In this document: positions 37,503 to 59,315 of the stretch, piece by piece
How the letters are laid out: each line of letters opens with the position of its first letter
How positions within the stretch are numbered: the first letter of the stretch is position 1
IMG/VR virus record: IMGVR_UViG_2855110455_000001
Span: 3,344 to 67,343 of that record
DNA from: a virus
Taxonomy: Duplodnaviria; Caudoviricetes
DNA: 64,000 nt
Strand: one strand, 5' to 3'
The notes under the pieces: model-generated
The model's database searches: none
The model's input: only the letters and a program-made list of their open reading frames with translations
Told to the model about the DNA's origin: nothing
Program-made: the position numbers and the translations under genes

Positions 37503-37590
37503 TCGTTGCTGGCCAAAACTTAGCGCATACTGACTACATTATGGAAAACTACACCTGAACCACTGCACCGAAAGGCGCGGTGGTTTTTTT
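37503..37590 (+). promoter_or_regulatory. Third promoter + terminator unit before the giant gene
   Basis: TTGCTG..gccaaaacttag..CATACT then aaccactgcacc-gaaa-ggcgcggtggttttttt. Confidence 0.5.
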
Positions 37591-37612
37591 ATGCCATTTT
37601 TATGAGGTTTAC

Positions 37613-40600
37613 ATGAGCGAAAGATTATTAGGCAACGATATTGATCCTAAAGCGACTGTTCAAGCGCAAACGGATATGACAAATACTGGTGGAGACTATG
37701 AGTTACCTGAGGGTTTTTCGTTAGCTAATTTTCAGCCTCGTGATGTGAAAAATCATGAAGTAAGTTTATTCGATGGCGCAAAATCTTTTGTGAGTGGAGG
37801 CTTGCGCTCTTTAGAGGGGGCATCTGAAGCACAAGGGCAGGTGTTGAATGTGTTAAATGACAAGGTAAACGCTAATGATGGATGGATATCTAGCGTTGCC
37901 TCTGCTGCACAAGACATACCTGTAGTTAGAGCCGCAATGGCAACTACACCTTATATAAAAAACGTATTAGATTCAGCTGCAAATACTGTAGAAGACAGCT
38001 TAAGCGATGATGCAAAAGCTGCTGCGAGTGAGCCACTTGCATGGCGAGAAGGAGATAACTGGAGAGTATCAACTGATCCTGCTGTGTGGGGGATCCAATT
38101 TAGTAAATCGATGGGTTATATGTTGCCAACTATTGCAACTGCATTTTCGACAGGAGGTGTATCAGCGAGTGCATTATTGCCTAATATCACTAATGCAATG
38201 ATTCGCTCTGGGGCAAGTGCAACGTTAGCGTCTAAAGCTGCACCTATTGCACTTAATATGCTAATGAAAGCACCAGCGGTTGGAGTTGGGATGAGTACTG
38301 ATTTAGGTACTCAAGGCGTAGAGTCTAGTAATGGTGTGATAGATGCAGAGCATCGTCAATTGATGGAATCACAACATTACCAAGATGCATTTATAGACAT
38401 TGATAGTGATCCTAAGTACGTACATTTATCTGACGGTGAGAAGTTTGGTCTTGCTAAAGAATTTGTGAGTAATCAGGCATCTCGCGCTGCAATGACCGAT
38501 GTTCGTAATGTTGCAGCAAGTGCTGCTGCGACAATGGTAGGTGATATACCATTAGCTAATGCGATGCTTAAAGGATTTAAACATGGTGGTGGTGTTCGTG
38601 GAACTGCAGCGGGTATAGCAAAAGGTATTGCACGTGAAGCTCCAATGGAAGCTATCCAAGAAGGAACGCAGCAGCGTGTAAGTAACGAAGTATCCAACGA
38701 GTACCAAGGCTCGAACATTGATCCTAACCAAGGTGTTGCAGAAGCAGCGGTAAGTGGTGGCTTAATGGGAACTGCCATGGGGGGAAGTATGGGGTCTATT
38801 GGTGGTTTTCGAAGTAAGTCGCAGGTAGATCCGATAACAGAAATATCTGTTGATGATAGCCCTGTCTCTGAAGCGCCGATTGATTCAAATGCAGTTGATG
38901 CCTCTATTAGTGAGGATTCAGTACCAGAACAACATAACAAAATTTATCCTAATGACTTTGAAAATACATCGTCTCAAATTCGGCAACAAGAAGCAGACAC
39001 CAATGAAACGGCATCAGAATTAGAAACTGAGAATGTAGTGGAATCTACGCCAGACAGTGATGTGAATCCTGATATAAATCCGGAGCTGGCCACAAGTATC
39101 TTCAATGAAGTCGATACACAAAATGATTTAGATATCCCTGCATATTTACGCCAACCAGTAAAATTGAGTGAAAAGGCTGCCAGTATTGATGAGTCTTTGC
39201 CTGCAGCTACCAATACTGATTTAGTTGTTTCTGACTCTCGGCCTGATGTTATTTATGGTCATGATAAGCGGACAACACAGGATCCAACTATTTATGATAA
39301 ACCAGTTGGTGAGCCTCAATTTGAAGGAGGAATCCCTAAGAATAAATTACGTCAATTAAAGTATTTGGCCAATCGGCGTAATGCAAAAATCCCATTAGCC
39401 TTACAGCCACTGAAAGGTTCTGGTCGTTTCACTCGTCCTGAATATCGCAGTCGCTTAGTCTCTATTGCTGATGAAGCAATCTCATTAGGTAATAGTAAAA
39501 GTGTCAATGTACAGGTTGATTCAATATCAGACGCAATCACCAAACTAGGAGGTGTAAGTCGTACATCGGCACAAGCTGATGGTATTGATTCTGCAGCTTT
39601 CAAACGTAATAAGCTGTTTTCTGCCACAAAGGGACGTACTTTTGATGAGTTAGCTGAAGTGCTGAATGAACATGGATATAGATCGCGTGATGGCGGTAAG
39701 TTAGACGCTAATGCAGTGCTTGATCTTGTCGACAGTGAAGTTAATAACAATGAGCGTCACTTTAGCAGTCAATCAGATATGTTAACGGAAACCGATCACG
39801 GTTCGGCTTTTAATGAATTGGTCCGTGAGTATGGTGCTGAACGTGTTAAAACGGCAATAAGTAAGGCCTTGCAAGGTAACCGCTTAGGGGATCGACAGGC
39901 TGAAATTGTTAATGAGGCAATGGATGTTATTGAAACAGGGCGTATTGAACAAGCTGGTGGAATTGAAGCTCGTCATGGCGAGCGAGATAGTCGCCGTGAA
40001 GCTCGAGCTTTGAGGCAAAAGAAACAGTTAGAGAAAACTCATAATGAGTTGGGGCTACCTAAAAAGGTGGAACCTGACAATTCTGTCAATATTGAGAGAG
40101 AATATAATGAGACGGTTGAAGCTGTACTAGATAATTCGATTAAACAAGCAACGATAGCTAATCCCATAGAAACAGAGTCATTAATATATCGTTATGAGAC
40201 CGGCCAAATTACGACTGCAGACTTAATATCACGTTTAGGAGAGCTTGATTATGCCGATAAACAAAAACTCAACAGCATGGAAGACACTCAATCAACTTCC
40301 AAAAGAAAGGATCCTACAAGCGTTGAAGAACGGGCTAGAGAAAGGGAAACACCTTCGTCAAAAGAATCAGAATCAACAAGAATTAATAGCGACAGAGTCG
40401 GAACCGATGATGTTAAAAAACCAAAGCATGAGCAAAGAAGAGAACCTAAATCAAAAATAACATCTACTGATGACCATCGTTCGATGCTGTATTCACAGCA
40501 GGCGTTAAGCAGTTCAAATACTACAACGAAGGGAATACCCTTAAAGCAAGCAGAGTTGGCCGTTAAATCATGGTTACGCCAGTACAATGGCGGTGCTGGT

Positions 40601-43600
40601 GTTTCAGTAAATGTAGTCAAAACTCAAGCAGAGGCTGAGCAGATATTAGGTACATCATTTAACGATTATAAGGTGAATGCATTTTATGATGAAGTTACTG
40701 CATCAGTTGTTGTAGTGGCAGATAACATTGCAAATACCAAAGATCTCCGTCAAAAGTTGCGCCACGAAATTTTAGTTCATCACGGCTTACGTGCTGTTGT
40801 TGGTGACACGGAGTATGGACGTATCCTGAAAACAGTATATTCAGGTCTCGGCTCTAAGCATTTAAAATCAATGGTTGCAGAACTAGAGCAAAGCTATAGC
40901 AGAGAAAACTTAAATAATTTTGTCGAAGAAGTGTTGGCGCATGTAGCGGAGAATGAACGTAATAAGTCCCAACAGTGGTATGACAGAGTCATGGCGGTGA
41001 TTGCTACCGCATTACGTAAAGTCGGTCTAATGTCAGCGTCTGATATAACTAAAGCTGAATTGCATAATATTGTACAAACATTAACAGACCGAATTAAGTC
41101 GGTAAATGAATGGGGACCAGATAGTTCACCACCAGGTAATGATAGTAATGGGCACATATCACGCACGAAGTTCAGCCGCACGGTTTTCACAAATAATCAA
41201 TCATCATCAGCATTTCTTGATGCTGTAGAAAAAGCACGATCGCATATAAAAGGACCAGCTTCTGATGTTGCTGCTGGTGGCTTTGATATCCCCACTGAAA
41301 ACATCAAATCAACTATCGTCCGTAATTTAGCGGATAAGTTTCAAGTCCTCAAAGAGTTACAACGCAATATTGTAAAAGCTGACGGTAAAATTACAGAGGA
41401 TAGTGATACTTACCTTGCAGAAGAACTCTTTCACGGGAAGGCTGAAAATGATTTGCGGATCATGAAAGATGCTTTTGTGAAGCCATTAGCCAATAAAATG
41501 GCTCAATATGATATAAGCCAGACAAAGCTTGATGAATACCTGATAGCTCGTCATGCCCAAGAGCGTAATGCTTATATTGCATCAATTAATGCTAAGTTTC
41601 CTGACGGTGGCTCGGGTATGAGCAATGCAGATGCCCAAAGTAAACTTGATGAAATTAGAAATAGCGGTAAGCAAAAACACTATGATGAGTTAGCACATAT
41701 TGTGGATGCGATGATAGCACGTCAGCGTGATGTGTTACGTGATAGTGGTTTGGAATCAGATGCGGTGATTGATAGTTGGCAATCTCACTACAAACACTAT
41801 GTGCCCTTAAAGGGGATAGCAAAAGATGAGTCATCATTACCACGCACAGGTAAAGGTTTTAGTATTGGTGGTAAAGAAGCTAAAAATGCCATGGGGCGAA
41901 AATCCATAGCTGAATCACCAAGCAGCCATGCTATCTCTGATTTAACAGAAAAACTTATCCGAGCCCGTAAAAACGAAGTGGGAAATGCACTGCTTAAGTT
42001 AGTGAAAGATAATCCTTCTGATGATTACTGGCAGGTTTTTAGCAGTGATAAACCAGACACATCGCCACAAATTATTGAGCGTAAGAACTCAAAAACAGGT
42101 CAAAAGGAAAAGGTTGTTGAGGATCGTCCTGTACCTATGTCCATGATGCCTGATTACTACTTTCCAACAAAGAAAGATGGCAAGGTCTATTACATAAAAT
42201 TGCATGATAAACGATTGATGAAAGCAATGAAGAATATCGGGCCAGACAATAGTAATGGCATTATTCGAGCTATGGCTACGTTTAATCGATTTCTTGCTTC
42301 AGTAAATACCAGCTACAACCCTGAATTTGTTGTAGGGAACTTTGCACGTGATATTCAAACTGCGTTCTTAAATCTATCTGCAGAGCAAACACGCGATGAC
42401 GGTAAGATCAAAGGTAAGAATATTGCTAAGCAGGTGATAGTTGATATTAAGCATGCAATGCCTGCGGTATATGCTTCATTGAATGATAAGTCCTCTAAAA
42501 CGCCTAGTGGGCGTGAATGGCAGAATTATTTTAATGAATTTATGGAAGATGGAGGTAAAACCGGTTGGTTTGATATGAAGGATGTCGACGGCCAAGCTAA
42601 AGATATTGAACGCATGGTTGCTGTGGCCAGTGGTTCAACAAAAGGTAAGGCATATAAAGCGTTTGATGCTGTTGCTGGTTTCGTTGAAAACGTTAATAGC
42701 GCTGTTGAAAATGCTGTGCGGTTATCTGCTTATGTGAACGCCCGTAAAGCAGGGATTAGTCGTAAGAAGTCAGCATCATTAGCAAAGAACATGACCGTTA
42801 ATTTTAATCGTCGAGGTGAAGTAGGTACTACCTTAAATGCAATGTATATGTTTGCGAATGCTTCTATTCAAGGCACTGTAAATTTTGTGCGTACTATGGC
42901 TGATTTGAATGGCGATGGTAAGTTGAAATGGAAAAATATGAACAAGGCGCAAAAGTTGGCTACTGGTATTGTGGCTGGTTCGTTTGTCTTGGCGTTTGCC
43001 AATAGAAATGCGGCTGGTGACGATGATGATGGCGAGAATTGGTATGACAAAGTACCTGATTACGTTAAAGAACGTAATTTTGTGATCATGAAATCATTAG
43101 TTGGGGGAAAGCAAGATGGTTCTTACTGGTCAATTCCAATGCCTTATGGATACAACGTATTTTCAGTCTTGGGTTCAAGCGTTGAATCTGTCATGAATAG
43201 TGACAGTGTCACTCCTGTGAAAGCAGCAGGAGACTTAGTCATGGCTGCACTTGGCGCTTTTTCACCTATAGGTATGAGTGAATCTCATACTATAACGGGA
43301 GCTGTTCTTAAAAATGCTTTACCAACTATAGGTAAGCCTTTTGCTGAGCTTGGATTAAATGAAAACTTCTTTGGTGGTCAGATTTATAAAGAGAACATGC
43401 CATTTGGTACACCTCAGCCTAATAGTTCTATAAGTAAACGGGGTACATCCGATCACTATAAAGACTTCGCAAAATGGCTGAATCAAGTCTCAGGCGGTAG
43501 TAAATATCGATCTGGGGGATTAGATTTTAGCCCAGATGCAATGCAGTATATTGTTGGTTATATGGGCGGTGCTGCATTTCGGTTTACAAGTGTAAAGGTT

Positions 43601-43981
43601 CCTGGATTAGTTGATAAAGTGACGAACGATAACGTTGAAGATAGTCAGGTCGCTTTTTTAAGTCGTATATCCGGTCGAGTAATGCCATATGCAGATCAAA
43701 GTAAGTTTTATGAGCGCCGTGATGAATTACTGCAGATAAGAGATGAATCTAAGGTAACGTTTGGCACTAAGCGTAAGAACTTTTTAGGCACTTACGGTAA
43801 AAAACTGCGATTACTTCCTATGCTGAAGGTAACTGAAAATCAGCTTAAAGCGTTACGTAAACGTCGTAATGCTATTTATGCCCTCAACATCCCATCTAAA
43901 GATAAAGATTTACGTTTGAAGAACATTGAACGTCAGATGAAAACAGTAATAGATAGGTTTAATCGTCAATATAATGCTTAG
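37613..43981 (+). CDS. Giant ejection / large polyvalent protein (metallopeptidase-like motif, C-terminal LPD38-like domain)
   Basis: 2,122 aa; LRHEILVHHGL..EE zincin-like motif; TVNFNRRG, IPMPYGY, NENFFGGQIY C-terminal motifs. Confidence 0.75.
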   Translation: MSERLLGNDIDPKATVQAQTDMTNTGGDYELPEGFSLANFQPRDVKNHEVSLFDGAKSFVSGGLRSLEGASEAQGQVLNVLNDKVNANDGWISSVASAAQDIPVVRAAMATTPYIKNVLDSAANTVEDSLSDDAKAAASEPLAWREGDNWRVSTDPAVWGIQFSKSMGYMLPTIATAFSTGGVSASALLPNITNAMIRSGASATLASKAAPIALNMLMKAPAVGVGMSTDLGTQGVESSNGVIDAEHRQLMESQHYQDAFIDIDSDPKYVHLSDGEKFGLAKEFVSNQASRAAMTDVRNVAASAAATMVGDIPLANAMLKGFKHGGGVRGTAAGIAKGIAREAPMEAIQEGTQQRVSNEVSNEYQGSNIDPNQGVAEAAVSGGLMGTAMGGSMGSIGGFRSKSQVDPITEISVDDSPVSEAPIDSNAVDASISEDSVPEQHNKIYPNDFENTSSQIRQQEADTNETASELETENVVESTPDSDVNPDINPELATSIFNEVDTQNDLDIPAYLRQPVKLSEKAASIDESLPAATNTDLVVSDSRPDVIYGHDKRTTQDPTIYDKPVGEPQFEGGIPKNKLRQLKYLANRRNAKIPLALQPLKGSGRFTRPEYRSRLVSIADEAISLGNSKSVNVQVDSISDAITKLGGVSRTSAQADGIDSAAFKRNKLFSATKGRTFDELAEVLNEHGYRSRDGGKLDANAVLDLVDSEVNNNERHFSSQSDMLTETDHGSAFNELVREYGAERVKTAISKALQGNRLGDRQAEIVNEAMDVIETGRIEQAGGIEARHGERDSRREARALRQKKQLEKTHNELGLPKKVEPDNSVNIEREYNETVEAVLDNSIKQATIANPIETESLIYRYETGQITTADLISRLGELDYADKQKLNSMEDTQSTSKRKDPTSVEERARERETPSSKESESTRINSDRVGTDDVKKPKHEQRREPKSKITSTDDHRSMLYSQQALSSSNTTTKGIPLKQAELAVKSWLRQYNGGAGVSVNVVKTQAEAEQILGTSFNDYKVNAFYDEVTASVVVVADNIANTKDLRQKLRHEILVHHGLRAVVGDTEYGRILKTVYSGLGSKHLKSMVAELEQSYSRENLNNFVEEVLAHVAENERNKSQQWYDRVMAVIATALRKVGLMSASDITKAELHNIVQTLTDRIKSVNEWGPDSSPPGNDSNGHISRTKFSRTVFTNNQSSSAFLDAVEKARSHIKGPASDVAAGGFDIPTENIKSTIVRNLADKFQVLKELQRNIVKADGKITEDSDTYLAEELFHGKAENDLRIMKDAFVKPLANKMAQYDISQTKLDEYLIARHAQERNAYIASINAKFPDGGSGMSNADAQSKLDEIRNSGKQKHYDELAHIVDAMIARQRDVLRDSGLESDAVIDSWQSHYKHYVPLKGIAKDESSLPRTGKGFSIGGKEAKNAMGRKSIAESPSSHAISDLTEKLIRARKNEVGNALLKLVKDNPSDDYWQVFSSDKPDTSPQIIERKNSKTGQKEKVVEDRPVPMSMMPDYYFPTKKDGKVYYIKLHDKRLMKAMKNIGPDNSNGIIRAMATFNRFLASVNTSYNPEFVVGNFARDIQTAFLNLSAEQTRDDGKIKGKNIAKQVIVDIKHAMPAVYASLNDKSSKTPSGREWQNYFNEFMEDGGKTGWFDMKDVDGQAKDIERMVAVASGSTKGKAYKAFDAVAGFVENVNSAVENAVRLSAYVNARKAGISRKKSASLAKNMTVNFNRRGEVGTTLNAMYMFANASIQGTVNFVRTMADLNGDGKLKWKNMNKAQKLATGIVAGSFVLAFANRNAAGDDDDGENWYDKVPDYVKERNFVIMKSLVGGKQDGSYWSIPMPYGYNVFSVLGSSVESVMNSDSVTPVKAAGDLVMAALGAFSPIGMSESHTITGAVLKNALPTIGKPFAELGLNENFFGGQIYKENMPFGTPQPNSSISKRGTSDHYKDFAKWLNQVSGGSKYRSGGLDFSPDAMQYIVGYMGGAAFRFTSVKVPGLVDKVTNDNVEDSQVAFLSRISGRVMPYADQSKFYERRDELLQIRDESKVTFGTKRKNFLGTYGKKLRLLPMLKVTENQLKALRKRRNAIYALNIPSKDKDLRLKNIERQMKTVIDRFNRQYNA

Positions 43982-44155: not shown

Positions 44156-44854
44156 TTAATTCCGTTGTGACATCAAAAAATTAACATTTTCTGTCAATTC
44201 TACGATTAACTGATCTTGTTCTGCGATTTTTTGCTGTAAATCATCAATACATACAGCATTTTCGTCACAGATTTTAACTGTTCCACCCATTACTGCGAAA
44301 GTGTTGCTCTCGTGAAGGATTGGAGCTTCTGGGCGAAGTTGGCCGTTTGCAAACATATAATCACGTAAACCGATACCAACAGAGTTGTACCCATTTACAG
44401 TAATGCTTGAGCCAATAGCTGTTGATGAATGCCCATTTGCTGTTGCTTTAAAGCCGAATGCAGTAGATCCTGCGCCATTAGCCTCAGTGCCACTACCAAA
44501 CGCAGTAGACCAATCACCATTAGCATCGGTTCCATCACCCCATGCTGTCGAAGCTTTACCTACAGCACGAGTCATTTGACCAAAAGCTGTTGAAGCCCAA
44601 CCTCCAGCATATGTTTCTAAACCGAATGCTGTGGCTTCAGAGCCAGAGCGTGGAATAACGGTGTTCCAGCCCCAAGCAGTACTATTGAAGCCCTTTATTT
44701 CTTTTGCCATGCCCCAGTGCTTAGCATTCACACCAATATTAGTTTTTTCGTGTGTTGCGATCTGGCTATTTTGATTAATATGTTGTTCTAGATCGCTAGC
44801 ATAAGCAGTGCTTGTAATTGCAAGCATACAAAGACATAAGAAACGCTTTTTCAT
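44156..44854 (-). CDS. Secreted YadA-head-repeat protein without membrane anchor (moron)
   Basis: Signal peptide; ~14-aa STAFG..T.A.G repeats; C-terminal coiled coil; hairpin at 44,107-44,130. Confidence 0.75.
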   Translation of the reverse strand: MKKRFLCLCMLAITSTAYASDLEQHINQNSQIATHEKTNIGVNAKHWGMAKEIKGFNSTAWGWNTVIPRSGSEATAFGLETYAGGWASTAFGQMTRAVGKASTAWGDGTDANGDWSTAFGSGTEANGAGSTAFGFKATANGHSSTAIGSSITVNGYNSVGIGLRDYMFANGQLRPEAPILHESNTFAVMGGTVKICDENAVCIDDLQQKIAEQDQLIVELTENVNFLMSQRN

Positions 44855-46358: not shown

Positions 46359-46817
46359 TTAATCAAAAAGAGCCTTTAGAGCTGCAGGTGAAGAAGGAAT
46401 TAGCCCAATTTTTAGACCAAAAGGTTTAAATACTTTACCTAAAATGTCAGCATTAAAATGGCCGCGATCGTTCTCTATATCTGAAATTGTTTTACGCGAA
46501 ACACCGACCATTTTGGCAAAGACATCTTGTTTTATACCTAAAACTCCAATCCGAAGATTTTTTAAGGCTTTTCCTTGAGATAGTTGACCAAATATTAATT
46601 GTTTGACTATCGCATTGATTTTCTTTTTTCGTTCTGATGGACTGGTAGTCGTAATATTTTTTGATACTCTTCCTGGAGATGACGATTCCTGCATCAAAGT
46701 TGGCTCTGTACCGTGAGATGGACGGTGATCTTCAGAAACACTTTGAATATTTCCTTTTTTCATTCGAGCGATAACATCTTCTACGCTTTCAGCTTGAATA
46801 TGATCAGTATTACTCAT
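46359..46817 (-). CDS. XRE-HTH antitoxin (HipB-like)
   Basis: LKNLR..LGIKQDVFAKMVGVSRKTISDIEND; ATGA overlap with hipA. Confidence 0.85.
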   Translation of the reverse strand: MSNTDHIQAESVEDVIARMKKGNIQSVSEDHRPSHGTEPTLMQESSSPGRVSKNITTTSPSERKKKINAIVKQLIFGQLSQGKALKNLRIGVLGIKQDVFAKMVGVSRKTISDIENDRGHFNADILGKVFKPFGLKIGLIPSSPAALKALFD

Positions 46818-48190
46818 AAAAGTCCCCATTTTTTTATCTTTTCAGGTATAAACTTCAAACCAATAGCTGGCATATTTGTTATTTGCTCTGGCGCACCTCT
46901 GCTCTCCAACCGCTCTTGAAGACCTAGACATTTTTTAGCCGTATTTCGAAGTTCCATAAGCAAAACGTCGCTCGGCACAAGATCTGATAGAGATTCTGCA
47001 ATACCAAAGAAGTCATACTCACCACCTACTTCTAATGGTGATTTCCATTTTGTAGATCGAGGAATACCTTCGGGATCTGCTTTCATAGGTGCGAAATCAT
47101 AAATAGGAGAGAGTTTAATAAAACCGTCACCTTTCAGAAAACATGTATTTCGGCCATGATTATCACTATTACCGAATAATATGTTCAGCAAATCTCTTTT
47201 TACCCATTCAATAACGAAAGCCTGAATATCAAAAATATAACCATGTGTTTTTACAGTATGACTTTGCGTTATTTTTTTAATCAAATCTCTAATTGTTGTT
47301 TCATGATCGAGAGTAACGCCAGGGCCTATACCTAAGATGGAATACACTGATTCCATGCCAAATCTTGATATAGAAGGAGCAGGGCTCTCACCATATATCA
47401 CATCAAATCTTGGTAACCATAAAGATGGATATGTTAAGCCTTCTTCAAGTCGCATATTTTCTACGGGAATAGTATCGAATCCCATAGCTGCTAGTTCATG
47501 GTAGTAATGATATTCAGCTCTAAGGATATTACAATCAACAAGGCTTCGAGTGCCGCGAGGGTACTTAACAAGATAGTGTAAATCTTGATTAGTGTTATCG
47601 TTCTGGTACGAGTCAATCCAGATATTTTTGGAATCAACAGATTTAGCCCGTTCCACAGAGTAACGAAGTAAAAGTTTAGGAGCTTCACCACCGGCACCTG
47701 TAGCACCACCTGCTGCTGCGCCTCTATGCTGAGCGTAATCGAGGAAGTCACCCGCTCTATTCTTTACATCATCGATAGTAAAGAAAAGTGTACCAGATAT
47801 ATGATCAGGCTTAGGTAATGAATCTTTAACTCTTAGGTTACCGACTGGAGCCATTGTTCCAAATTTGAGTAATATGAAATTTTGTTGCCCAGAACTCAAT
47901 TCACCTATATTGAGGCGATTAACCCAGTATCGTCTACTCGCGCCACTAGGCATGATATCGTCTAAAAACTTCAACCAGCCGGGTCTACCGTCATCATCAA
48001 AGAAGAAAGATACCGGATAATTTATAGAAACGGCATGAATATCATCTTTATCAAAATGCTCTAATGCGTATTCGCTAATATAATTTAATTCAGTTATTCG
48101 ATAGTTTTTCGAATCACTTTCTGGAAATGAAATGATTGCAATATCGAGCCACTTTTCGTTTAGAAAAGCTTGTATAGTCAGTTCTTCCAC
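46814..48190 (-). CDS. hipA: HipA-family kinase toxin
   Basis: GATGAGGEAPK, RFD, GNSDNHGRN, LSPIYDF. Confidence 0.9.
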   Translation of the reverse strand: MEELTIQAFLNEKWLDIAIISFPESDSKNYRITELNYISEYALEHFDKDDIHAVSINYPVSFFFDDDGRPGWLKFLDDIMPSGASRRYWVNRLNIGELSSGQQNFILLKFGTMAPVGNLRVKDSLPKPDHISGTLFFTIDDVKNRAGDFLDYAQHRGAAAGGATGAGGEAPKLLLRYSVERAKSVDSKNIWIDSYQNDNTNQDLHYLVKYPRGTRSLVDCNILRAEYHYYHELAAMGFDTIPVENMRLEEGLTYPSLWLPRFDVIYGESPAPSISRFGMESVYSILGIGPGVTLDHETTIRDLIKKITQSHTVKTHGYIFDIQAFVIEWVKRDLLNILFGNSDNHGRNTCFLKGDGFIKLSPIYDFAPMKADPEGIPRSTKWKSPLEVGGEYDFFGIAESLSDLVPSDVLLMELRNTAKKCLGLQERLESRGAPEQITNMPAIGLKFIPEKIKKWGLL

Positions 48191-48719: not shown

Positions 48720-49883
48720 ATGAGCCTGACAGACCGACAACTTAATCTTATATCAAAGCAAGACACTTATGACGGTAAAGCTGAAATTAGTGATGGTGAA
48801 GGGCTCGTTGTCCGCATAACACCTCAAGCTAAAATCTATTTTCATTACCGTTGCCGCTTTAATAAAAAAAGCCTAAGAATTCGTATAGGTAAGTATCCCG
48901 TAACTAGCCTTAAAGAGGCAAGGCGAAAGCATAAATTAATGATGGAATTAAGAGAATCTGGTCGAAATCCCAACATTGCTATAACGGGTGAGCTTGAATT
49001 TATCACTTTAGATGATTGTGTTGCGTACTGGCTTAAACATTATGTCCCTCAATTAAAAGTGGGTACTCAGGCACTTTATCGCTCGTTTGCCAAAAATTAC
49101 CTTATTGGTGCGTTCCCTGAACGTAATGTTGAAACGATACCAGCCAGAGAATGGATGCAGTGGTTAGATACCATTAGCCTTGATAAACCCAAAACCGCTA
49201 ATTCACTCTTCACCAAGCTAAGAGCCTGTTTAAACTTCTGTAAGAGTAAGTTCATTATTGAAAAAACAGACTTAGACCGAATTAAAAGACAGCATGTAGG
49301 TAGAGCACCAGAAGTCGGTACCCGAGTGCCAACGTTTTCAGAACTTAGCATGATTTGGTTGGCCATCGAACGCAGCCGCGCCAGCTCATCTAATAAGGCG
49401 CTGCATCAATTAACTATGTTGTGGGGCAGCCGTCTTTCAGAGTTGCGCCTAGCTCGTCGCAGTCACTTTGATATGGAAGCGGGTATATGGACGGTACCGA
49501 AAGAACTCAGTAAAACCAATACGCCAATAAGACGCCCAATTCCAACTAAAGCGCGGGTGATATTAGAGCGAGTAATGGCAACTTACGATGATGTGCTTTT
49601 TCCAGGTAGTGATCTTGATAAGCCGATAACTATTTCAGCGGCTAACCGTTATATCCGCCGTATAAGAGATGGTTTACCGATTGAAGATTGGCGTACCCAT
49701 GATTTTAGACGCTCATTATCCACCGGTGCATCAGAGCTTGGTGTAATGCCACATGTAGTTGAAAAGATGCTTGGCCATGAGCTGGGTGGCGTATTAGCGG
49801 TTTATAACAAACATGATTGGCTGAAAGACCAGTTAGAAGGGTATGAGCTATATGCTGAGAAGCTGGATAGTTATTTGAAGTAG
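48720..49883 (+). CDS. int: Tyrosine integrase with N-terminal arm-binding domain
   Basis: DGEGL.VR..GKYP..SL.EAR; R (SRLSE), K, HDFRR, LGH, Y (VYN). Confidence 0.95.
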   Translation: MSLTDRQLNLISKQDTYDGKAEISDGEGLVVRITPQAKIYFHYRCRFNKKSLRIRIGKYPVTSLKEARRKHKLMMELRESGRNPNIAITGELEFITLDDCVAYWLKHYVPQLKVGTQALYRSFAKNYLIGAFPERNVETIPAREWMQWLDTISLDKPKTANSLFTKLRACLNFCKSKFIIEKTDLDRIKRQHVGRAPEVGTRVPTFSELSMIWLAIERSRASSSNKALHQLTMLWGSRLSELRLARRSHFDMEAGIWTVPKELSKTNTPIRRPIPTKARVILERVMATYDDVLFPGSDLDKPITISAANRYIRRIRDGLPIEDWRTHDFRRSLSTGASELGVMPHVVEKMLGHELGGVLAVYNKHDWLKDQLEGYELYAEKLDSYLK

Positions 49884-50311: not shown

Positions 50312-52387
50312 ATGGAAACAACTAGCTTTATTTCAACAAAAGTAGCTACAAAACTCTTAAAAGTTTTGATTAAAGTGTTAAAAAACAGTGTTGACAAGCG
50401 TAATAATGAGTTGGTTAGGATTAATGATATATTTGGTAATTGTGAGGAACTTGCTAAGTTTTACATACAACCTGATTGCCAGCAGGTAAATCCTGCTGAT
50501 GAGCTTGAAGATGAAACAATATCATCAATAAGAGCTGGAGTTTTTGAGACTATAAACAAATTTCTTAATCGAGATATTGTGACTAGAGATGGAGCAAGTC
50601 AGATGTTTATTCTTGCTGATGCAGGAATGGGAAAAACATCTTTGTTGATGATGGTTAAGCTAAGTCATTTGATGGCTTTCTGGCCGAAAAATTATCAATG
50701 CAAATTACTTAAATTAGGTGCTACCACCTTAAGTGATATCAATGATATAGAAAACAAAAGTCAAACTGTCTTATTGCTAGACTCATTGGATGAAGATACT
50801 CAGTGTAAGCAAGGTGGCACAATTAATCGATTAACTAAGATACTTGAAGCTACTAGCTGTTTTTACCGAGTTGTAATAACTTGTCGTACTCAATTCTTCC
50901 CTGAAACAGCAGGATCTGCTTTTAATACTATGGGTAAAATATCATTTAATAATTATGATTGCCCGTTAGTTTATCTTTCTTTGTTTACTGATGAGCAGGT
51001 GGATGAATATTTAGAAAAGCGTTACCCAAGAAGCTTAAAGTTCCTATTTAACCAATTTTATAACCCCAAATTGTATGATGCTAAACAATCTATAAGAAGC
51101 ATAGGCTCACTTCAGTTTCGACCGTTTTTGTTATCACACGTAGAGACTTTATTGGAAAGTCACCGACAGGGGGCTACTGAGTATGAATTATATAAAGGTT
51201 TAGTAGATACATGGTTAAATCGAGAGGTTATTAAGTTAAGGCAGCATCATGACAAAAATATTAATAAAGATGATTTGCTTAAAGCTTGTATTTGGCTAGC
51301 AGAAACGATGCAGCGACAAGGTAGACATACAGTAGCTTTGAAGCATATTCAGCAGTTATGTCACTGTGATTCTCATATTATTCTATTAGAAGATTCTGCT
51401 GATAGGGTTATTGAAGGAATAGATCATATTGATATTGGAACTAATTCATTACTAAATCGTAATTCATATGGTGAGTTTAGATTTTCTCATTTAAGTATTA
51501 GAGAGTTTCTAATTGTGTATGGAGTTGAGCTTGGTATTCTTGTGGATAAAGGAGACCCATTCCATAAAACTGACAATATGATTAAATTTATTAAAACAGT
51601 AAATAAAAATAAAGTTGGAATGTTTTCTAACGAAAAAAATGGGCTCTTGTTAACTGGGTTTAAGCTCTTGGATAGTCGTCAATTATCTAACTTTGATTTG
51701 AAGTATGCATCTTTGGAGGAAAGTGATTTAAGGAATGCATCACTTAGTTTCATAAATTTGGAAGGGGCAAATCTTCAAGGGGCAAATTTGGACAAAGCGA
51801 ATTTGGAAGAAACCAACTTGAAAGGAGCCAATTTACAGGGGGTAAGTTTACAGGGAGCAAACTTACAAGGAGCAAACTTACAAGGAGCAAATTTACAAGA
51901 TGCCTGTCTAAATGGTGCAATTCTTGACAACGCAAATTTGAATAGCGCCATGTTAACTGGAGCGCAATTAACCATTCTAAATCTACTCCAACAAAAGATG
52001 AGCGGTGCTAGTTTGAGGAATGCAAACCTCAGAATGGCGGACTTAAGTAAAGCAAACTTGGAAGATGCCAATTTAACAGAGGCGTGTTTAACAAGCGCTA
52101 AACTTCAAGCCTCATTATTTTCACGAGCAAACTTTAGTAATGCTCATCTTGATAGTGCTGACTTTAAAAGTTCAATTTTTATAGAAGCTAATTTTGAGAA
52201 TGCTGACCTTACTCAAGCTGACTTTGGCGGTTGTGATTTTACGAATGCAAATTTACAGGGAGCTGATTTGACTGGTAGTGATTTAACTCAAGCTCGTTTA
52301 ACTGGCTCCAATATAACTGACAGTCAACGAGGTGTGGCAATTTTTAGAAAGTATAAAAATGAAAAGCTAAATGAAATAGTATCATAA
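50312..52387 (+). CDS. NACHT/STAND-type NTPase with C-terminal pentapeptide repeats
   Basis: ADAGMGKT Walker A, LLLDSLDE Walker B, ITCR, RPFLL, FSHLSIREF; A(N/D)LxG repeats. Confidence 0.85.
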   Translation: METTSFISTKVATKLLKVLIKVLKNSVDKRNNELVRINDIFGNCEELAKFYIQPDCQQVNPADELEDETISSIRAGVFETINKFLNRDIVTRDGASQMFILADAGMGKTSLLMMVKLSHLMAFWPKNYQCKLLKLGATTLSDINDIENKSQTVLLLDSLDEDTQCKQGGTINRLTKILEATSCFYRVVITCRTQFFPETAGSAFNTMGKISFNNYDCPLVYLSLFTDEQVDEYLEKRYPRSLKFLFNQFYNPKLYDAKQSIRSIGSLQFRPFLLSHVETLLESHRQGATEYELYKGLVDTWLNREVIKLRQHHDKNINKDDLLKACIWLAETMQRQGRHTVALKHIQQLCHCDSHIILLEDSADRVIEGIDHIDIGTNSLLNRNSYGEFRFSHLSIREFLIVYGVELGILVDKGDPFHKTDNMIKFIKTVNKNKVGMFSNEKNGLLLTGFKLLDSRQLSNFDLKYASLEESDLRNASLSFINLEGANLQGANLDKANLEETNLKGANLQGVSLQGANLQGANLQGANLQDACLNGAILDNANLNSAMLTGAQLTILNLLQQKMSGASLRNANLRMADLSKANLEDANLTEACLTSAKLQASLFSRANFSNAHLDSADFKSSIFIEANFENADLTQADFGGCDFTNANLQGADLTGSDLTQARLTGSNITDSQRGVAIFRKYKNEKLNEIVS

Positions 52388-52835: not shown

Positions 52836-54497
52836 ATGTTCGAGCCTATGTTTGATACGCAAAATAAGTTGTTGGCTACTGTAATTGGGGTAGGCAGTGT
52901 TGGCTGTAAGATCGTACACGATATGCAATTCAACAATGATTCAGTGGCAAACGATTTGGTAAATAAACTATACGTACACACGACTGAAGAATTGCTTGTT
53001 AAATACACGAGTGAACCTTCTGAATCTTTATTGATCAGTGAGCACATACATTTTTTTGAGAAAGACATTAAAGATAGGGTCTCTGGTAGAGATATTGTTT
53101 TTCTTGTTGCTGGTCTTGGAGGTGAAACTGGTAGTCTAGTCCCTCAACATATAGCACGGATTTCAAAAAAATTAGGTATTTTATGTATAGGGTTATTTTC
53201 GTTTCCATTTGAATTTGAAGGAAGAAGTAAAAAGTTAAAGTCGCAGCAAGCATATTTAACTCTGAGCCAATACACGGATGCTTTGTTGTGTATAGAGAAT
53301 GATCGTTTTTTAGATTCTAATTTAAAAAACAAATCATTATATGGAATAAAAGATTTATTCCATGACTCAAACAGTCATTTTGATGCAGTGATTAAAGGTC
53401 TAGTTGATCTAATAACACGCCCAGGAATGATTAATGTGGATTTTTCTGATGTTAGGCAAATATTAACAAATATGGGTTTAAGTACAGTAGGTTTTTCTCG
53501 TCAACTTGGTGAAGAAAGAGCAGAAAATGCGGTGACTAAATTACTTCAGTCACCAGCATTACAACATTATGAATTGTCAAAAGCTAAAGGTTGTTTAATC
53601 AATATAACAGCAGGTTTAGACATGCGATTAGATGAGTTTGAAGTAATCGGTAATGTTGTAAAGGATTTTGTTGGAAATGACGTAACTGTTGTAATTGGAA
53701 CTTCTTTAGATCCTGAAATGATTAGTGCCATGGAAGTAACAGCAATAATAACTGGTTTACCTGAGTTACCAATAGATAAAAACATAAAAAGCAATGATTT
53801 TGACATTGTTAAATTGTCAAAATCAATTACGTTTGAATCTCATCAAGTAAGTGCAGGACTGTCAATATTATCGTATTTTAACGAGTTCCTTCATCAAAAG
53901 TACTCAGGAACAGAAGCAAAAGTTAGTATTGAACAAAATAGAAATATGGTGCGTCTGATAGTTGAAACACCATCTGGTGAAGTGGAAAAAATAGAAAAAT
54001 CATTACATGAATTTGGTCAAGTTATTGTTGGTAATAAACAGGCAAATGAAATTCTTGAATCAAAATTCGATGTAGAGCGCTTGCAGATGAAGTTAGAAAT
54101 GGCTGCAATGGAGTTAAAGCAAAATGAAAGAATGATGCTTTTGTATCAGGATGAAAACCAGTCTTATAAATCTAGGATTACTTCATTAGAAAATCAAATG
54201 ATTGAACTACAGCGAACAATCTGTAATGGCTTGACGTATTCGCAAAAACAATTGTCATTACAATTTTCTGCGTACAAAAATCTACCAACAAGCTTACTCT
54301 ACTTATTGGAAAATAATGCAGAGAAAGAACTCTCTGAACTAGCAAAAAAACAAATAGGAGAAGAAATTAGCAAGCACATTACAGATAATCACAAGGCTCT
54401 AACTTTAAAAGAGCTAGCTGATAATGCACTTTATGGGGTTGCTGGAAATTCCTTATATTCGCTCATTGTATCGTTGTTAGCCACGTTACCGAAGTGA
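52836..54497 (+). CDS. Divergent FtsZ-like GTPase domain fused to a ~230-aa unknown/coiled-coil domain
   Basis: VIGVG, AGLGGETGS, PFEFEG, IEND, PGMINVDFSDV, AKGCLINITAG, VVIGTSLDPEM..VTAIITGL; no FtsZ C-terminal peptide. Confidence 0.9.
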   Translation: MFEPMFDTQNKLLATVIGVGSVGCKIVHDMQFNNDSVANDLVNKLYVHTTEELLVKYTSEPSESLLISEHIHFFEKDIKDRVSGRDIVFLVAGLGGETGSLVPQHIARISKKLGILCIGLFSFPFEFEGRSKKLKSQQAYLTLSQYTDALLCIENDRFLDSNLKNKSLYGIKDLFHDSNSHFDAVIKGLVDLITRPGMINVDFSDVRQILTNMGLSTVGFSRQLGEERAENAVTKLLQSPALQHYELSKAKGCLINITAGLDMRLDEFEVIGNVVKDFVGNDVTVVIGTSLDPEMISAMEVTAIITGLPELPIDKNIKSNDFDIVKLSKSITFESHQVSAGLSILSYFNEFLHQKYSGTEAKVSIEQNRNMVRLIVETPSGEVEKIEKSLHEFGQVIVGNKQANEILESKFDVERLQMKLEMAAMELKQNERMMLLYQDENQSYKSRITSLENQMIELQRTICNGLTYSQKQLSLQFSAYKNLPTSLLYLLENNAEKELSELAKKQIGEEISKHITDNHKALTLKELADNALYGVAGNSLYSLIVSLLATLPK

Positions 54498-55278: not shown

Positions 55279-55956
55279 TTACTTTAGAGAGCTAATGAAT
55301 GTCATTAGTTCATGCATTTTTGTTGCTGGCGATTCTGAATTATTTTTTTCACAATAGGTACATAGCCGCTGTGCATTAGTTATAGCGGAAGGAAGTAGTT
55401 GTATTGTATCTTTCAAGGCTGTTTTATTGCTCTTATCATAATTCTTAATAAAACCAGTTAGATCTTTTACCACTTGATTTGAGGCGGTTTTACGTTCCTG
55501 ATCTGTATACAATTTTGTTGTATATTCAAAATGTAGTATTAACCATATTTCAAAACAAGGAATACTTGTAATTGCTGTAAAAATAGGTGCATCATAACCT
55601 ATTGATTTGTTTATGCTATCAACCTTAGATATTGCATTGTAATACCGTGCATGATTATCTTTATCAAAAACACAAAAGACGCGTTCAAAGTCTGGTTTGT
55701 GAGATTTTTTTTCTTCGTTGAAACGACGCTCTGCATCTCTAACTATATCAAGTGGATCTTGCCCTAAGCCAACGATTGAAAAATTTGCTGTTGATAACCT
55801 AAAATGCCTGACAGCCTCAATAAGATAATGATAGCCTGAAACCGTATCCTCACAGACGATTAGAAATTTTGGATATGGTTCTTTTTTTTCATGTGCTCTT
55901 TTTTTTGAACGATTAGCTTTAGCCTTCAATTTATGAAAGATATTATCTTTACCCAT
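55279..55956 (-). CDS. RloB-family protein
   Basis: FLIVCED, FCVFDKD, SIPCFEIWLILHFE, AITNA..P.T motifs. Confidence 0.85.
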   Translation of the reverse strand: MGKDNIFHKLKAKANRSKKRAHEKKEPYPKFLIVCEDTVSGYHYLIEAVRHFRLSTANFSIVGLGQDPLDIVRDAERRFNEEKKSHKPDFERVFCVFDKDNHARYYNAISKVDSINKSIGYDAPIFTAITSIPCFEIWLILHFEYTTKLYTDQERKTASNQVVKDLTGFIKNYDKSNKTALKDTIQLLPSAITNAQRLCTYCEKNNSESPATKMHELMTFISSLK

Positions 55957-57222
55957 TTAACACTCTCTTTCAAAAATAAATGGTAAAGCACCATAAGATC
56001 CTGTGAGATATCTTTCTTCTAGATTTTCGAAGTCCTTTCTCACCTTAAATTCACTTAGGGCGTATAATTCACTCATATTATTTGTTTTTTGCATAAACCA
56101 AATTTGATCTCTTCTAAAGACCGATTGGTTTAAAATTGATGTTTCATGTGTAGTAAAAATTAATTGAGCATTATTTGGATTGGATTTTTTGCAATGAAAT
56201 AATTGAACCATGTGCTTCACTAAAAGCGGATGCAAATTTGAATTTAATTCATCGACAAAAAGAGTTCTACCACACTCTAAAGCATCTAGCCATGGGCCAG
56301 CAAAAGAAAAGAATCTATTCGTGCCATCAGATTCTTCTTCCATATCAAAAGGGACAGGCTGGCCATCCTCATCATTACGAATAAATTTTGTATCGTAAAT
56401 AATTTCACCTTCCAGCTTTTCAGCGATTTGTTCCTTTAAGGCTGAAGGCATTTCTTCTGGAAGGTTATTAATATGGAACTCTTCGCTTTCTACCTGAATA
56501 TCATCAACTAAGATATCTACATCTTTAAGTAATTGGATGATTTTTTCTTTGTTATCTGCATTGTTACATTGCTTGGATGTATAGCTTGAGCTCCAGCCGT
56601 CAATTCCAGAAATTGCAACTTGATCTACAAACCAATTAAAAATATCTTTTAGTTGAACACTATTTAGTTGAACTGCTGTTGATAAAAATAAAGAGTTTTC
56701 TTTTGTTAAGTTGGCCCATGTTTGCTTTTCTCCAGCTAAACTACGACCAAATTCCCACTTATATTCATTATCAGTATCGTCCCAGGCACGTAAAAACCAT
56801 TTTTGAGCTTTCTTTTTAGGGTATGCAAATAGGTATTCTGTCAAGATTCGAGATTGATCATAAGAAAATCCATATAAGTACTTAATATCATTTTCAATGA
56901 ATTCTACTTCAAATTCAGTTGGAGCATTTCTAGAGTGCTTAGAAAGCTTATATGGGTGATAAGGTAACTTTTTATCAATTTGCCATTGAGCTGATTTTAC
57001 AATCATGCGGCGCATTAATGAGAATGCTGAAATAAGATTACTTTTTCCACTTGCATTAGCACCATAAATTGCTGATGTTTTAAGCAATTTTTGGCTGTTA
57101 TTTTCACTTGCCCATTCAAAAGTATTAGTATCTGATTTTTCTGTGTAAGAACTTGGCTCCATGTCTAAGACTTGTTTTGAGCAGATAGACATATAGTTCT
57201 CTACTGCTAGCCGAATGATCAT
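55957..57222 (-). CDS. RloA-like AAA_21/ABC ATPase
   Basis: VENYMSI, IYGANASGKSN, ESDGT, VDEL..LHP, QLIFTTH, RRDQIWF, YL.G.YGA.P. Confidence 0.88.
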   Translation of the reverse strand: MIIRLAVENYMSICSKQVLDMEPSSYTEKSDTNTFEWASENNSQKLLKTSAIYGANASGKSNLISAFSLMRRMIVKSAQWQIDKKLPYHPYKLSKHSRNAPTEFEVEFIENDIKYLYGFSYDQSRILTEYLFAYPKKKAQKWFLRAWDDTDNEYKWEFGRSLAGEKQTWANLTKENSLFLSTAVQLNSVQLKDIFNWFVDQVAISGIDGWSSSYTSKQCNNADNKEKIIQLLKDVDILVDDIQVESEEFHINNLPEEMPSALKEQIAEKLEGEIIYDTKFIRNDEDGQPVPFDMEEESDGTNRFFSFAGPWLDALECGRTLFVDELNSNLHPLLVKHMVQLFHCKKSNPNNAQLIFTTHETSILNQSVFRRDQIWFMQKTNNMSELYALSEFKVRKDFENLEERYLTGSYGALPFIFEREC

Positions 57223-57692: not shown

Positions 57693-59315
57693 TTATAGCT
57701 GGATATTGGTATTAATGATGGCATCGTTATAACCAGACCAATTATCAACACCCGCATTTTCGAGTGCTGTTAAAATGGCATCACGTTTTCGAAGATAATT
57801 CGCTTCTTTAGCGGTTATTTGAACCATTGGTACTGCTTTGATTTCTGATGCTTGTATGCGTTGAGCAAGAATTACTGATTCTAGTGCTTCTTTGTCTTTA
57901 TTTAGCGCATTGCTAATAACATCACTTTGCTTACTTTCTTCGCTAGCGGGTAGTATTTCCTGTTGAGCCTCAACCTTTGCTTGTGCTTTAGCATCTGCTT
58001 CTATCTGCACTTGTTGGCGTTCTTGTTCTAATCGAATATCTTCTGCAGCTTTGTGGTCAGTAATTCGAGTTTTAACAAGAGTATTAAAATCATCGGTATC
58101 TTTGAAGCAAATTGCCGCCCAGTCATTAAATAAGAATTGGTACTCAGCATGTGTCGATAGGGTGGCGTAGTTTTCCTTTGCTTTGTTAGCTAAAAGGTCT
58201 GCTTCTACAAGAGATTGTGCTGCAGCAGTATCTGCAGCTTCCTCCAGTGATTGAACTGTCTTTTTACCTTTCATTGCATTAAGCACTGATACTGTAGGTA
58301 TTGGCATTGGGGCTTTGATTTCTAATGATAACGCATTGAGATGTTGTTGAATTTTAACGTTGGCATCGTTAAGAATACTTTTGCGAATTTCATCCTTGCG
58401 ACTCTTCACTTGTTTATCTGCAGCTAATCGCGCTTGGCGAATTTGTTCACTGACAAACTTCAATTCCTTAATGAACGCATCAATACTTTGGACTTCACCA
58501 AGCACTTGCTCTGATAGTGCTTTTAGTTTGTCTTCTGCACCTTTGAATACTTTGACAAGCTGCTCTGCATCAGCAAACTCTTGGTCAGTTTCAATGGGGA
58601 TTTTTGATTTTTCAATCAGTGCCATGGTAGCTTGTTTGAAAATATCAAAGTTGCTGTTAAGTGTTAGACCATCCATTTTGTAAGTTAAAGCGGGTAGGTC
58701 ACGGATAGGCTCTGCTTCAAGAATAATGATTTCTTCTTTTTGCTCATAATTAGCTAAGTCCTTTTGGAATTGCAGCCAACCGGCAATAAGCTGTTCGCGG
58801 CGCTCTGGCACAGAAACATACTCGCAAGACGCAAAGTTTTCACTTGTACCATCTGAACAAACAAAGATAGTTTTCTCGGCACCTGAAACTAAAAGTTGCT
58901 GCTCTAACTGTCAGTAGTAGTGCGGTTCTAAGTCATTAGCCAGCACTCGCTCATACAAATCTTGATTAAACAACTTATGTTCAAACACCACATCTTCCAT
59001 CATGGTAATGCCATCGAATGAAGATAGCATCCAGTCGTATTCATCACTGATTGCTGTTGCTGGGAATAACTCTTCATCAATGATATTTTCTACGAGTGGA
59101 CGAGCACTATCTTCTGCGGCATGGCCACGGGCAAAGATCTTCTCTTGAAAGCTATTCACTTCAGGTTGTTCACCTGTTGCTTTTTGTTTAAGTAGGGCAT
59201 CACGACTTTGATATTTTGATGCACCCATCATGGCGCTAGATTCTGAAGCTGTAAATTTAGTGGCTCGTAGCGCGTGCCATTGCTGAGTTCCTTGGGTGAC
59301 ATTGATAATTTTCAT
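57693..59315 (-). pseudogene. YqaJ exonuclease copy 2 with premature stop
   Basis: HYY-TGA at 58,913-58,911 where copy 1 has TGG (W); frame otherwise intact. Confidence 0.9.

Follow-up and report, generated by a model that had tools for sequence, protein, structure and literature searches.

The window, meaning the whole stretch of 64,000 nucleotides analysed here (positions 3,344 to 67,343 of the Caudoviricetes record IMGVR_UViG_2855110455_000001), contains a gene for a giant protein with an acidic linker that carries the ten-residue motif DLDIPAYLRQ, a look-alike of the C-terminal tail of the division protein FtsZ. The motif is encoded by bases 39125-39154 (+), GAT TTA GAT ATC CCT GCA TAT TTA CGC CAA, and is real, as had been predicted originally from the letters alone, since it lies in frame in the sole long open reading frame (ORF) at this place, 37580-43981. 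In the ORF listing, this frame starts with GTG 37580 and yields the protein P0001 of 2133 amino acids (aa), from whose start the P0001 residue numbers are counted, the motif corresponding to residues 516-525. The true start of the gene is most likely ATG 37613, because GAGG is located 5 bases upstream and the homologs begin with MSDKLLG. This ATG sits downstream of a terminator-like hairpin and T-run that trail the preceding gene. The gene for the giant polyvalent (LPD38) virion/ejection protein, as delimited by ORF, translation, Pfam, PHROG and homology, accordingly spans 37613-43981 (+) and encodes 2122 aa.

The giant gene is the last one of a podovirus-type virion module, with the genes for terminase, portal, major head, tail fibre and internal virion proteins being located directly upstream at 19.6-37.4 kb. 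Close to the C-terminus, an LPD38 domain is encoded at 43034-43654 (+) (P0001 residues 1819-2025; Pfam PF18857, E 7.3e-42, 144 bits compared with a cut-off of 27). With this domain above the Pfam cut-off and the gene encoded together with portal and terminase genes, the protein is a member of the LPD38 polyvalent proteins. PHROGs matched it to giant phage proteins of unknown function (phrog_616 and phrog_14770) and weakly to 'DarB-like antirestriction', while Pfam found no match above the cut-off in two middle parts of the protein. The name 'LPD38 domain-containing protein [Photobacterium kishitanii]' belongs to a protein 98% identical to it, and by such sequence likeness the host of this prophage is assigned to Photobacterium. 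The nearest phage relatives are short-tailed Shiga toxin (Stx)-converting phages of E. coli, which match 67% of the protein at 45% identity, and the C-terminal 893 residues share 56% identity with the giant protein of phi24B. According to a preprint on that phage, its giant protein gp47 was detected in virions by proteomics, is absent from the reconstruction and was proposed as a capsid-packaged ejection protein, its family carrying a predicted metallopeptidase (10.64898/2026.04.10.717836). Likewise, polyvalent proteins were predicted to be injected alongside the DNA (Iyer et al., 2017; PMC5512222). The label of a giant ejection protein, already used in the original prediction, is thus reasonable by homology (LPD38, position in the virion module, 56% identity to the phi24B protein), and most likely it is carried inside the virion and enters the cell by ejection along with the DNA. 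Besides, the giant protein contains the sequence HEILVHH, encoded at 40763-40783 (+), in a block of strong conservation that reads LRHEILVHHGLRAVVGD in homologs. This sequence, for which Pfam yielded no match, may represent the metal site of the metallopeptidase domain reported for phi24B gp47.

The N-terminal domain is encoded at 37613-38806 (+) (P0001 residues 12-409), as defined by alignment A2, a profile search and the secondary structure predicted by AlphaFold2 (AF2) with low confidence. It was modelled, with the same low confidence, as all-helical and ends with a glycine-zipper-like stretch, GGLMGTAMGGSMGSIGG (38756-38806). This domain serves as the anchor of all comparisons below, the motif coming after it throughout the family. 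It is followed by the acidic linker at 38813-39247 (+) (P0001 residues 412-556), which was delimited by its composition and by the lack of predicted structure. Its 145 residues comprise 23% D and E, 5% K and R, 14% S and 8% P at a net charge of -26. In an AF2 model of the first 800 residues, built from a 9-sequence alignment and with a mean predicted local distance difference test score (pLDDT) of 45, residues 392-575 (numbered from M12) are without secondary structure and their blocks reach a pLDDT of 24-41, except for a 3-residue helical turn placed exactly on A-Y-L of the motif. Composition and the absence of predicted structure hence agree with the acidic, Pro/Ser-rich and probably disordered context that had been described for the motif, which in this respect, as judged from composition and the low-confidence model, would be presented on a disordered linker like an FtsZ tail. 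A sequence search of the PDB with a 60-residue linker piece yielded no matches at E up to 10 in a library from which tail peptides of fewer than 20 residues are absent.

Likeness to the FtsZ tail of the host genus

The FtsZ proteins of two Photobacterium genomes, which were found via loci related to the giant gene, end with ...HDYLDIPAFLRKQAD. The FtsZ tail of the host genus, DYLDIPAFLRKQAD, is the same as the E. coli tail quoted in the literature (PMC4117426). Aligned with D-Y-L-D-I-P-A-F-L-R-K of Photobacterium FtsZ, the N-D-L-D-I-P-A-Y-L-R-Q of the window protein is identical in L-D-I-P-A-x-L-R, with Y replacing F and Q replacing K. The likeness to the FtsZ tail, initially drawn from the E. 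coli sequence, is therefore confirmed against the actual ftsZ genes of the host genus. The exchange of F for Y is the sole core difference from the consensus D-[IV]-P-A-F-L-R. Among 31 gammaproteobacterial ftsZ genes, the tails read [x]LD[IV]PAFLR[RK], with I or V directly before the proline in all 31 and PAFLR in 30 of them; the remaining one has LDIPAYLRKK, so that Y is found in one genuine FtsZ tail. One gammaproteobacterial FtsZ with Y for F (locus L048 in genome G028) has the tail EYLDIPAYLRKKAYEGVKE and a longer extension past the motif. In both Photobacterium genomes ftsA adjoins ftsZ, and a gene with the ZipA C-domain is present as well. Since the motif of the giant protein is located internally and no tubulin domain is associated with it, it is a look-alike and not a member of FtsZ.

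A likeness to another short acidic peptide was also considered. The C-terminal tip of the single-stranded DNA-binding protein SSB is DDDIPF. This candidate was rejected, as the family keeps P-A-[YF]-[LM]-R, has the motif internally and features an extra residue between P and the aromatic position.

Conservation and distribution of the motif

Many windows compared with many known motifs will yield some 8-of-10 matches, and the possibility of a chance match had been raised together with the original prediction. Within the window, the family regex matched once in 127,996 six-frame codons, and LDIPA[FY]LR would be expected at 1.7e-10 per position given the composition of the giant protein itself. 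A degenerate DNA pattern for DIPA[FY]LR, applied to 10.4 Mb of the two Photobacterium genomes, retrieved only ftsZ (twice) and one small ORF; the reversed control pattern gave no matches in the same 10.4 Mb. This small ORF of 147 codons (L055, 3657-4097 (+), contig C59 of genome G002; WWLDIPAFLRWNG) reads ...EWWLDIPAFLRWNG..., with its DIPAFLR being outside any acidic linker. Pfam assigned no family above the cut-off to it, and its match is probably due to chance. Nevertheless, one such match could arise by chance across very many windows, which makes conservation the decisive test.

A search with residues 1-700 returned 15 proteins, all named ones being from Photobacterium. Two of them are partial, with 22% of the query covered, and are without the motif. 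The window protein and the 13 fuller homologs were aligned with MAFFT, and the motif is present in all 14. It varies as NDLDIPAYLRQ, NDLEIPAYLRQ, NDLDTPAYLRH, NDLETPAFMRQ, DDLSIPAYLRN and SDFDIPAYQRQ, and one homolog (P0009) features it at a displaced position as SDLETPAYLRK. In nine of the 14, a second copy (DDLNAPAYLREEL and variants; 'copy A') precedes it by about 30 residues, the motif at 39125-39154 being the family's 'copy B'. At 38954-38992 (+), the window protein has DFENTSSQIRQQE, a candidate for a decayed copy A by its position in the MAFFT alignment and, on this sequence-based reading, likely its remnant. In alignment A1 (9 sequences), the only invariant columns between R400 and S540 are P446, D505, P509, A510 and R513, all of them except P446 within the motif. 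Moreover, the mean pairwise identity of the 14 homologs amounts to 63% in the nine motif columns compared with 57% in the N-terminal domain, and to 31% and 40% in the linker upstream and downstream of the motif, respectively. The motif is a conserved island inside a variable linker. Among 19 related loci from genomes and IMG/VR, two of which were contributed by a scan of genome contigs with alignment A1, 14 have the motif in the linker; the five loci without it (L018-L021 and L023) show 29-41% identity in the N-terminal domain.

The distribution in more distant homologs was determined with a profile of the N-terminal domain (A2), which ends before the motif and thus excludes it from the query, against 1.84 billion cluster representatives. 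Out of 120 representatives found, 21 were fragments with fewer than 150 residues past the domain, leaving 99 evaluable ones. The regex [DENSQ]xP[AS][FY][LMIV]R, scored from -20 to +350 residues relative to the end of the domain, matched in 24 of these and was absent in 75. As the regex was derived from Photobacterium proteins that account for three of the 24, the independent count is 21 of 96. Shuffling of the linkers (500 times each) resulted in a mean of 0.048 proteins with a match and a maximum of 2. In the other parts of these proteins, 219,061 residues in total, three matches occurred, two of them in one protein (P0125) directly past its N-terminal domain as located by the remote search. 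Typical distant instances are DELRDVPAYLRQ, DEFRDTPAYLRQDPR, DEFADVPAFLRN, NLDVPAFMRDPRFR, PDAPAYLRA and DLNAPAYMRK. When a looser regex, P-x-[FYW]-[LMIV]-[RK], was applied, every match in the linkers kept A (once S) at +1 and R at +4 relative to the proline, which, by comparison of sequences, is the proteobacterial form of the FtsZ tail.

By also allowing Q at +3, 50 instances in 38 proteins were collected, comprising 43 distinct sequences. In these, position -4 is mostly D (21) or F (9), position -3 L (23) or R (11) and position -2 D (27), E (6), N (5) or S (4). Directly before the proline, T (13), I (12), A (10) and V (5) occur, with I, V or T in 30 of 43. Position +2 is occupied by Y (36) or F (7), and position +3 by L (27), M (9) or Q (5), L or M accounting for 36 of 43. 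The residues conserved in the family match those called critical in the literature on the FtsZ tail.

Named carriers of the motif are prophages from Aeromonas, Pectobacterium and Serratia, and the Aeromonas phage phiARM81mr has it as DELRDVPAYLRQ. The E. coli Stx phages PA2 and phi24B have one core match each in about 2800 residues, DPMEQPAFMRDPRFRG. Relatives without the motif were found in Enterovibrio, Salinivibrio, Grimontia and Vibrio, including Vibrio phage D184, and it is likewise absent from giant proteins in which the shared region is confined to the C-terminal part (Ralstonia GP4, Burkholderia BcepMigl and Bacillus Dartukuta). In a FastTree tree of 104 N-terminal domains, 36 of the 38 carriers fall into one clade of 51 rows (support 93). 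The presence of the motif changes eight times on this tree, at least five of the changes being forced by well-supported branches, while shuffled labels require 24 changes at the least and 31 on average. This is most simply read as an old motif that belongs to one large clade of gammaproteobacterial phages and was lost several times. The motif is under selection where it is present, its conservation being deep but patchy.

Conservation in homologs, which had been named beforehand as the test on which the idea could fail, was thus found in all 14 Photobacterium proteins and in 24 of the 99 distant representatives, where 0.05 would be expected. Together with the frequent duplication of the motif, its clustering on the tree and its single occurrence in the six-frame codons of the window, this effectively refutes the earlier reservation about chance, and a chance match of ten residues without function is regarded as extremely improbable.

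Possible receptors and functions

The FtsZ tail is bound by FtsA, ZipA, MinC, ZapD, ClpX and SlmA, with dissociation constants of the monomeric tail peptide of 20 µM for ZipA, 50 µM for FtsA and 81 µM for SlmA, and the exchange I374K in the tail eliminates the binding of SlmA (PMC4117426). Free C-terminal FtsZ fragments were reported to be growth-inhibitory in E. coli, the fragments 354-383 forming the inhibitory peak in vivo (PMC11831152). It is moderately probable, in our view, that the motif of the giant protein acts as an FtsZ-tail mimic engaging FtsA, ZipA or another tail receptor. Docking on, or competing for, the tethers of the divisome, as brought forward in the original prediction, would follow from the identity with the FtsZ tail.

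According to the proposed mechanism, the giant protein would be packed in the virion and ejected with the DNA, whereby its linker would reach the cytoplasmic side of the inner membrane. There, the motif would occupy the FtsZ-tail pocket of a host receptor, FtsA or ZipA being the likeliest, with MinC, SlmA, ZapD and ClpX as further possible receptors that use the same peptide. Binding might dock the injected protein, and perhaps the entering end of the genome, onto the membrane tethers of the division ring. As a second effect, many copies made late in infection could titrate the tethers away from FtsZ and delay division. The tandem copies of the motif in many relatives and several copies of the protein per virion would raise the avidity. 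Docking to FtsA or ZipA is favoured among the receptors because a linker that is flexible and acidic and directly follows a helical domain with a glycine-zipper-like end suits the capture of a membrane-proximal receptor.

The motif is an accessory feature, given that relatives from Vibrio, Salinivibrio, Ralstonia, Burkholderia and Bacillus are without it, and on the simplest reading virions can be made and emptied in its absence. It has been lost from entire clades that have the same virion module (Vibrio, Salinivibrio, Enterovibrio and Grimontia), which suggests a host-directed accessory role rather than one in assembly.

Several points weigh against mimicry of the FtsZ tail. In contrast to the tail, the motif is located internally (residues 516-525 of 2133) in a protein without a tubulin domain, and the AF2 model that contributes to the disordered context is poor overall (mean pLDDT 45). 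Part of the invariance among the 43 distinct instances was imposed by the regex used for collecting them, and the tree of the N-terminal domains was calculated by FastTree only, gave long-branch warnings and is without a known root. The motif has Y in 36 of the 43 distinct instances, while 30 of the 31 FtsZ tails have F. At the I374 equivalent, T or A occurs in 23 of the 43 and Q in the E. coli Stx phages (MEQPAFMRD), compared with I or V in all 31 FtsZ tails; a partner may accordingly read the peptide otherwise than the known receptors do. Moreover, the linker could stay periplasmic after ejection. Per cell, the tethers number in the hundreds to thousands and the FtsZ tails in the thousands. 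Competition by the injected protein alone is implausible because single tails bind weakly and the copies from virions are few compared with these cellular tethers and tails, and docking or late-infection titration is therefore more plausible than competition by few injected copies.

The same deviations are what would be expected of a conserved linear motif with a different partner, such as the portal, a scaffold, another ejection protein or a periplasmic or membrane protein of the host, the likeness to FtsZ being either coincidental or due to a shared shape (acidic run, Pro-capped amphipathic turn). Such a motif could depart systematically from FtsZ tails, as is the case for Y (36 of 43 compared with 1 of 31) and for T, A or Q at the I374 equivalent, and it could well be internal. 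In addition, the motif follows a probable membrane-active domain and might not reach the cytoplasm, and the binding of an FtsZ partner is itself read off the sequence. Nevertheless, seven consecutive consensus positions (L-D-[ITAV]-P-A-[YF]-[LM]-R) match the host tail, of which A at +1 and R at +4 were not forced by the collecting regex, and within 10.4 Mb of DNA from the host genus DIPA[FY]LR is confined to ftsZ and one other ORF. The loss of the motif in clades with the same virion module is also hard to square with a role in assembly or in a channel. A different partner is hence considered unlikely.

Another alternative retains the likeness to the FtsZ tail and assigns it to a single receptor. 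As a recognition signal of the FtsZ type, the motif would allow ClpX, with or without ClpP, to unfold, pull in or process the giant protein and to free its domains, with no effect on division. Unfoldases can readily start on a disordered linker. ClpX is among the partners of the FtsZ tail (PMC4117426), the tail sequence appears in a review of bacterial degrons, and polyvalent proteins were proposed to need processing into units after injection (PMC5512222). Still, nothing favours ClpX over the other receptors, the family has its own predicted metallopeptidase according to the phi24B preprint, with HEILVHH as a candidate in the window protein, and the degradation of an injected weapon seems costly to the phage. 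The ClpX signal is thus judged improbable.

Mimicry of the FtsZ tail with FtsA or ZipA as the likeliest receptor remains the favoured reading. In its widest form, which is tentative and rather doubtful, a temperate clade of gammaproteobacterial podoviruses, Stx phages included, would inject a protein whose first cytoplasm-exposed segment copies the FtsZ tail, with FtsA or ZipA as an intracellular receptor, in order to dock the ejection complex or genome or to arrest division from the onset of infection. If this holds true, no natural mimic of the FtsZ tail would have preceded it, and mimicry of a host by a linear motif would be described for the first time in a virion protein of a phage. Full-text literature searches (phage/FtsZ/mimic and the peptide letters) retrieved no natural FtsZ-tail mimic, with most subscription journals and supplements, including the alignments of Iyer et al., being outside their scope; 'DIPAYLR' had no occurrences in the full texts covered, and the peptide-letter matches listed all concern FtsZ. 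Mimicry would further assign a function to one part of the giant ejection/polyvalent proteins, which are largely uncharacterised, connect the entry of the genome with the tethers of the divisome and show that phages use linear-motif mimicry, a strategy well known for eukaryotic viruses. As the FtsZ tail is a hub read by at least six regulators, a viral copy would constitute a new class of division effectors and could serve as a probe or competitor. Since the same motif is found in the phi24B/933W group, where the giant protein is a virion component, the idea is directly testable in E. coli K-12.

Neighbouring genes and known systems

The window encodes a protein derived from FtsZ elsewhere, at 52836-54497 (+). 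This paralog of 553 aa starts with MFEPMF like FtsZ and shares 44% identity with the host FtsZ over residues 78-308, with 189 bits on the ftsZ model (cut-off 295). Its GTP-binding signature is degenerate (GGETGSL in place of GGGTGTG), and a C-terminal extension of about 240 residues, possibly a coiled coil, stands in place of the linker and tail. The gene is grouped with 50312-52387 (+) and 48720-49883 (+) and follows a putative STAND-like NTPase with pentapeptide repeats and a tyrosine integrase, the STAND-like match being weak (nSTAND3, 20.6 bits, below the cut-off of 27.2). This neighbourhood looks like a separate island, for which PADLOC gave no matches, and the paralog could be a defence or division-poisoning effector. 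A link between the motif and this gene was considered and is not supported: the FtsZ-like protein is without the FtsZ tail and sits in the integrase-bearing island. The FtsZ-like gene is adjoined by an abortive-infection pair of the AbiLi/AbiLii type (AAA_21 ATPase and RloB) at 55279-57222 (-).

A YqaJ exonuclease fused to a tail resembling the RecBCD inhibitor gp5.9 of T7 occurs twice, intact at 1650-3281 (-) and split into two ORFs at 57693-59315 (-). The right-hand ORF of the split copy (372 aa) shares 91% identity with the left copy, and the duplicate points to a tandem or remnant prophage on the far side of the island. At 46359-48190 (-), just downstream of the giant gene, a gene for a HipA-like kinase overlaps one for a helix-turn-helix protein, resembling a toxin-antitoxin pair. 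Additionally, a 592-aa protein with a ricin-B lectin domain is encoded at 13352-15130 (-) and a 232-aa protein with a YadA-head repeat at 44156-44854 (-); being on the opposite strand inside the prophage, both genes may be morons.

Compared with the FtsZ tail itself, the phage motif has the core L-D-I-P-A-[F/Y]-L-R and a disordered linker upstream in common. It differs in being internal and without a tubulin-like GTPase, in preferring Y, in tolerating T or A at I374 and in often occurring as two tandem copies 30 residues apart. With the large polyvalent proteins such as phi24B gp47 and those of the P1 DarB type, the window protein shares the giant size, the LPD38 domain and the position as last gene of the virion module (PMC5512222). 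In the accessible part of that study, the cytoskeleton-directed modules CbtA and YodL are reported for the polyvalent proteins from conjugative elements only, and FtsZ is mentioned only for CbtA (PMC5512222). CbtA and YodL, which set a precedent for modules of this kind in the class, are folded domains, whereas the candidate module of the window protein is a linear motif of 7-10 residues in a linker.

Likewise, the division inhibitors Kil of lambda, Icd of P1 and gp0.4 of T7 are phage products aimed at the FtsZ ring, with the action of Kil being described as ZipA-dependent. They are small, made after infection and act on FtsZ, as is reportedly the case for T7 gp0.4, and none of them is a virion protein or was described as a copy of the tail. 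The giant protein is, in contrast to such small early FtsZ binders, a protein of 2122 aa from a late structural module and copies FtsZ itself. Further parallels are the linear-motif mimicry of eukaryotic viruses and the colicins, whose disordered translocation domains contain receptor-binding epitopes, the TolB and TonB boxes. In both, a short host-like peptide in a disordered region recruits a host protein, as the motif would do in the giant protein, with hosts and partners being different.

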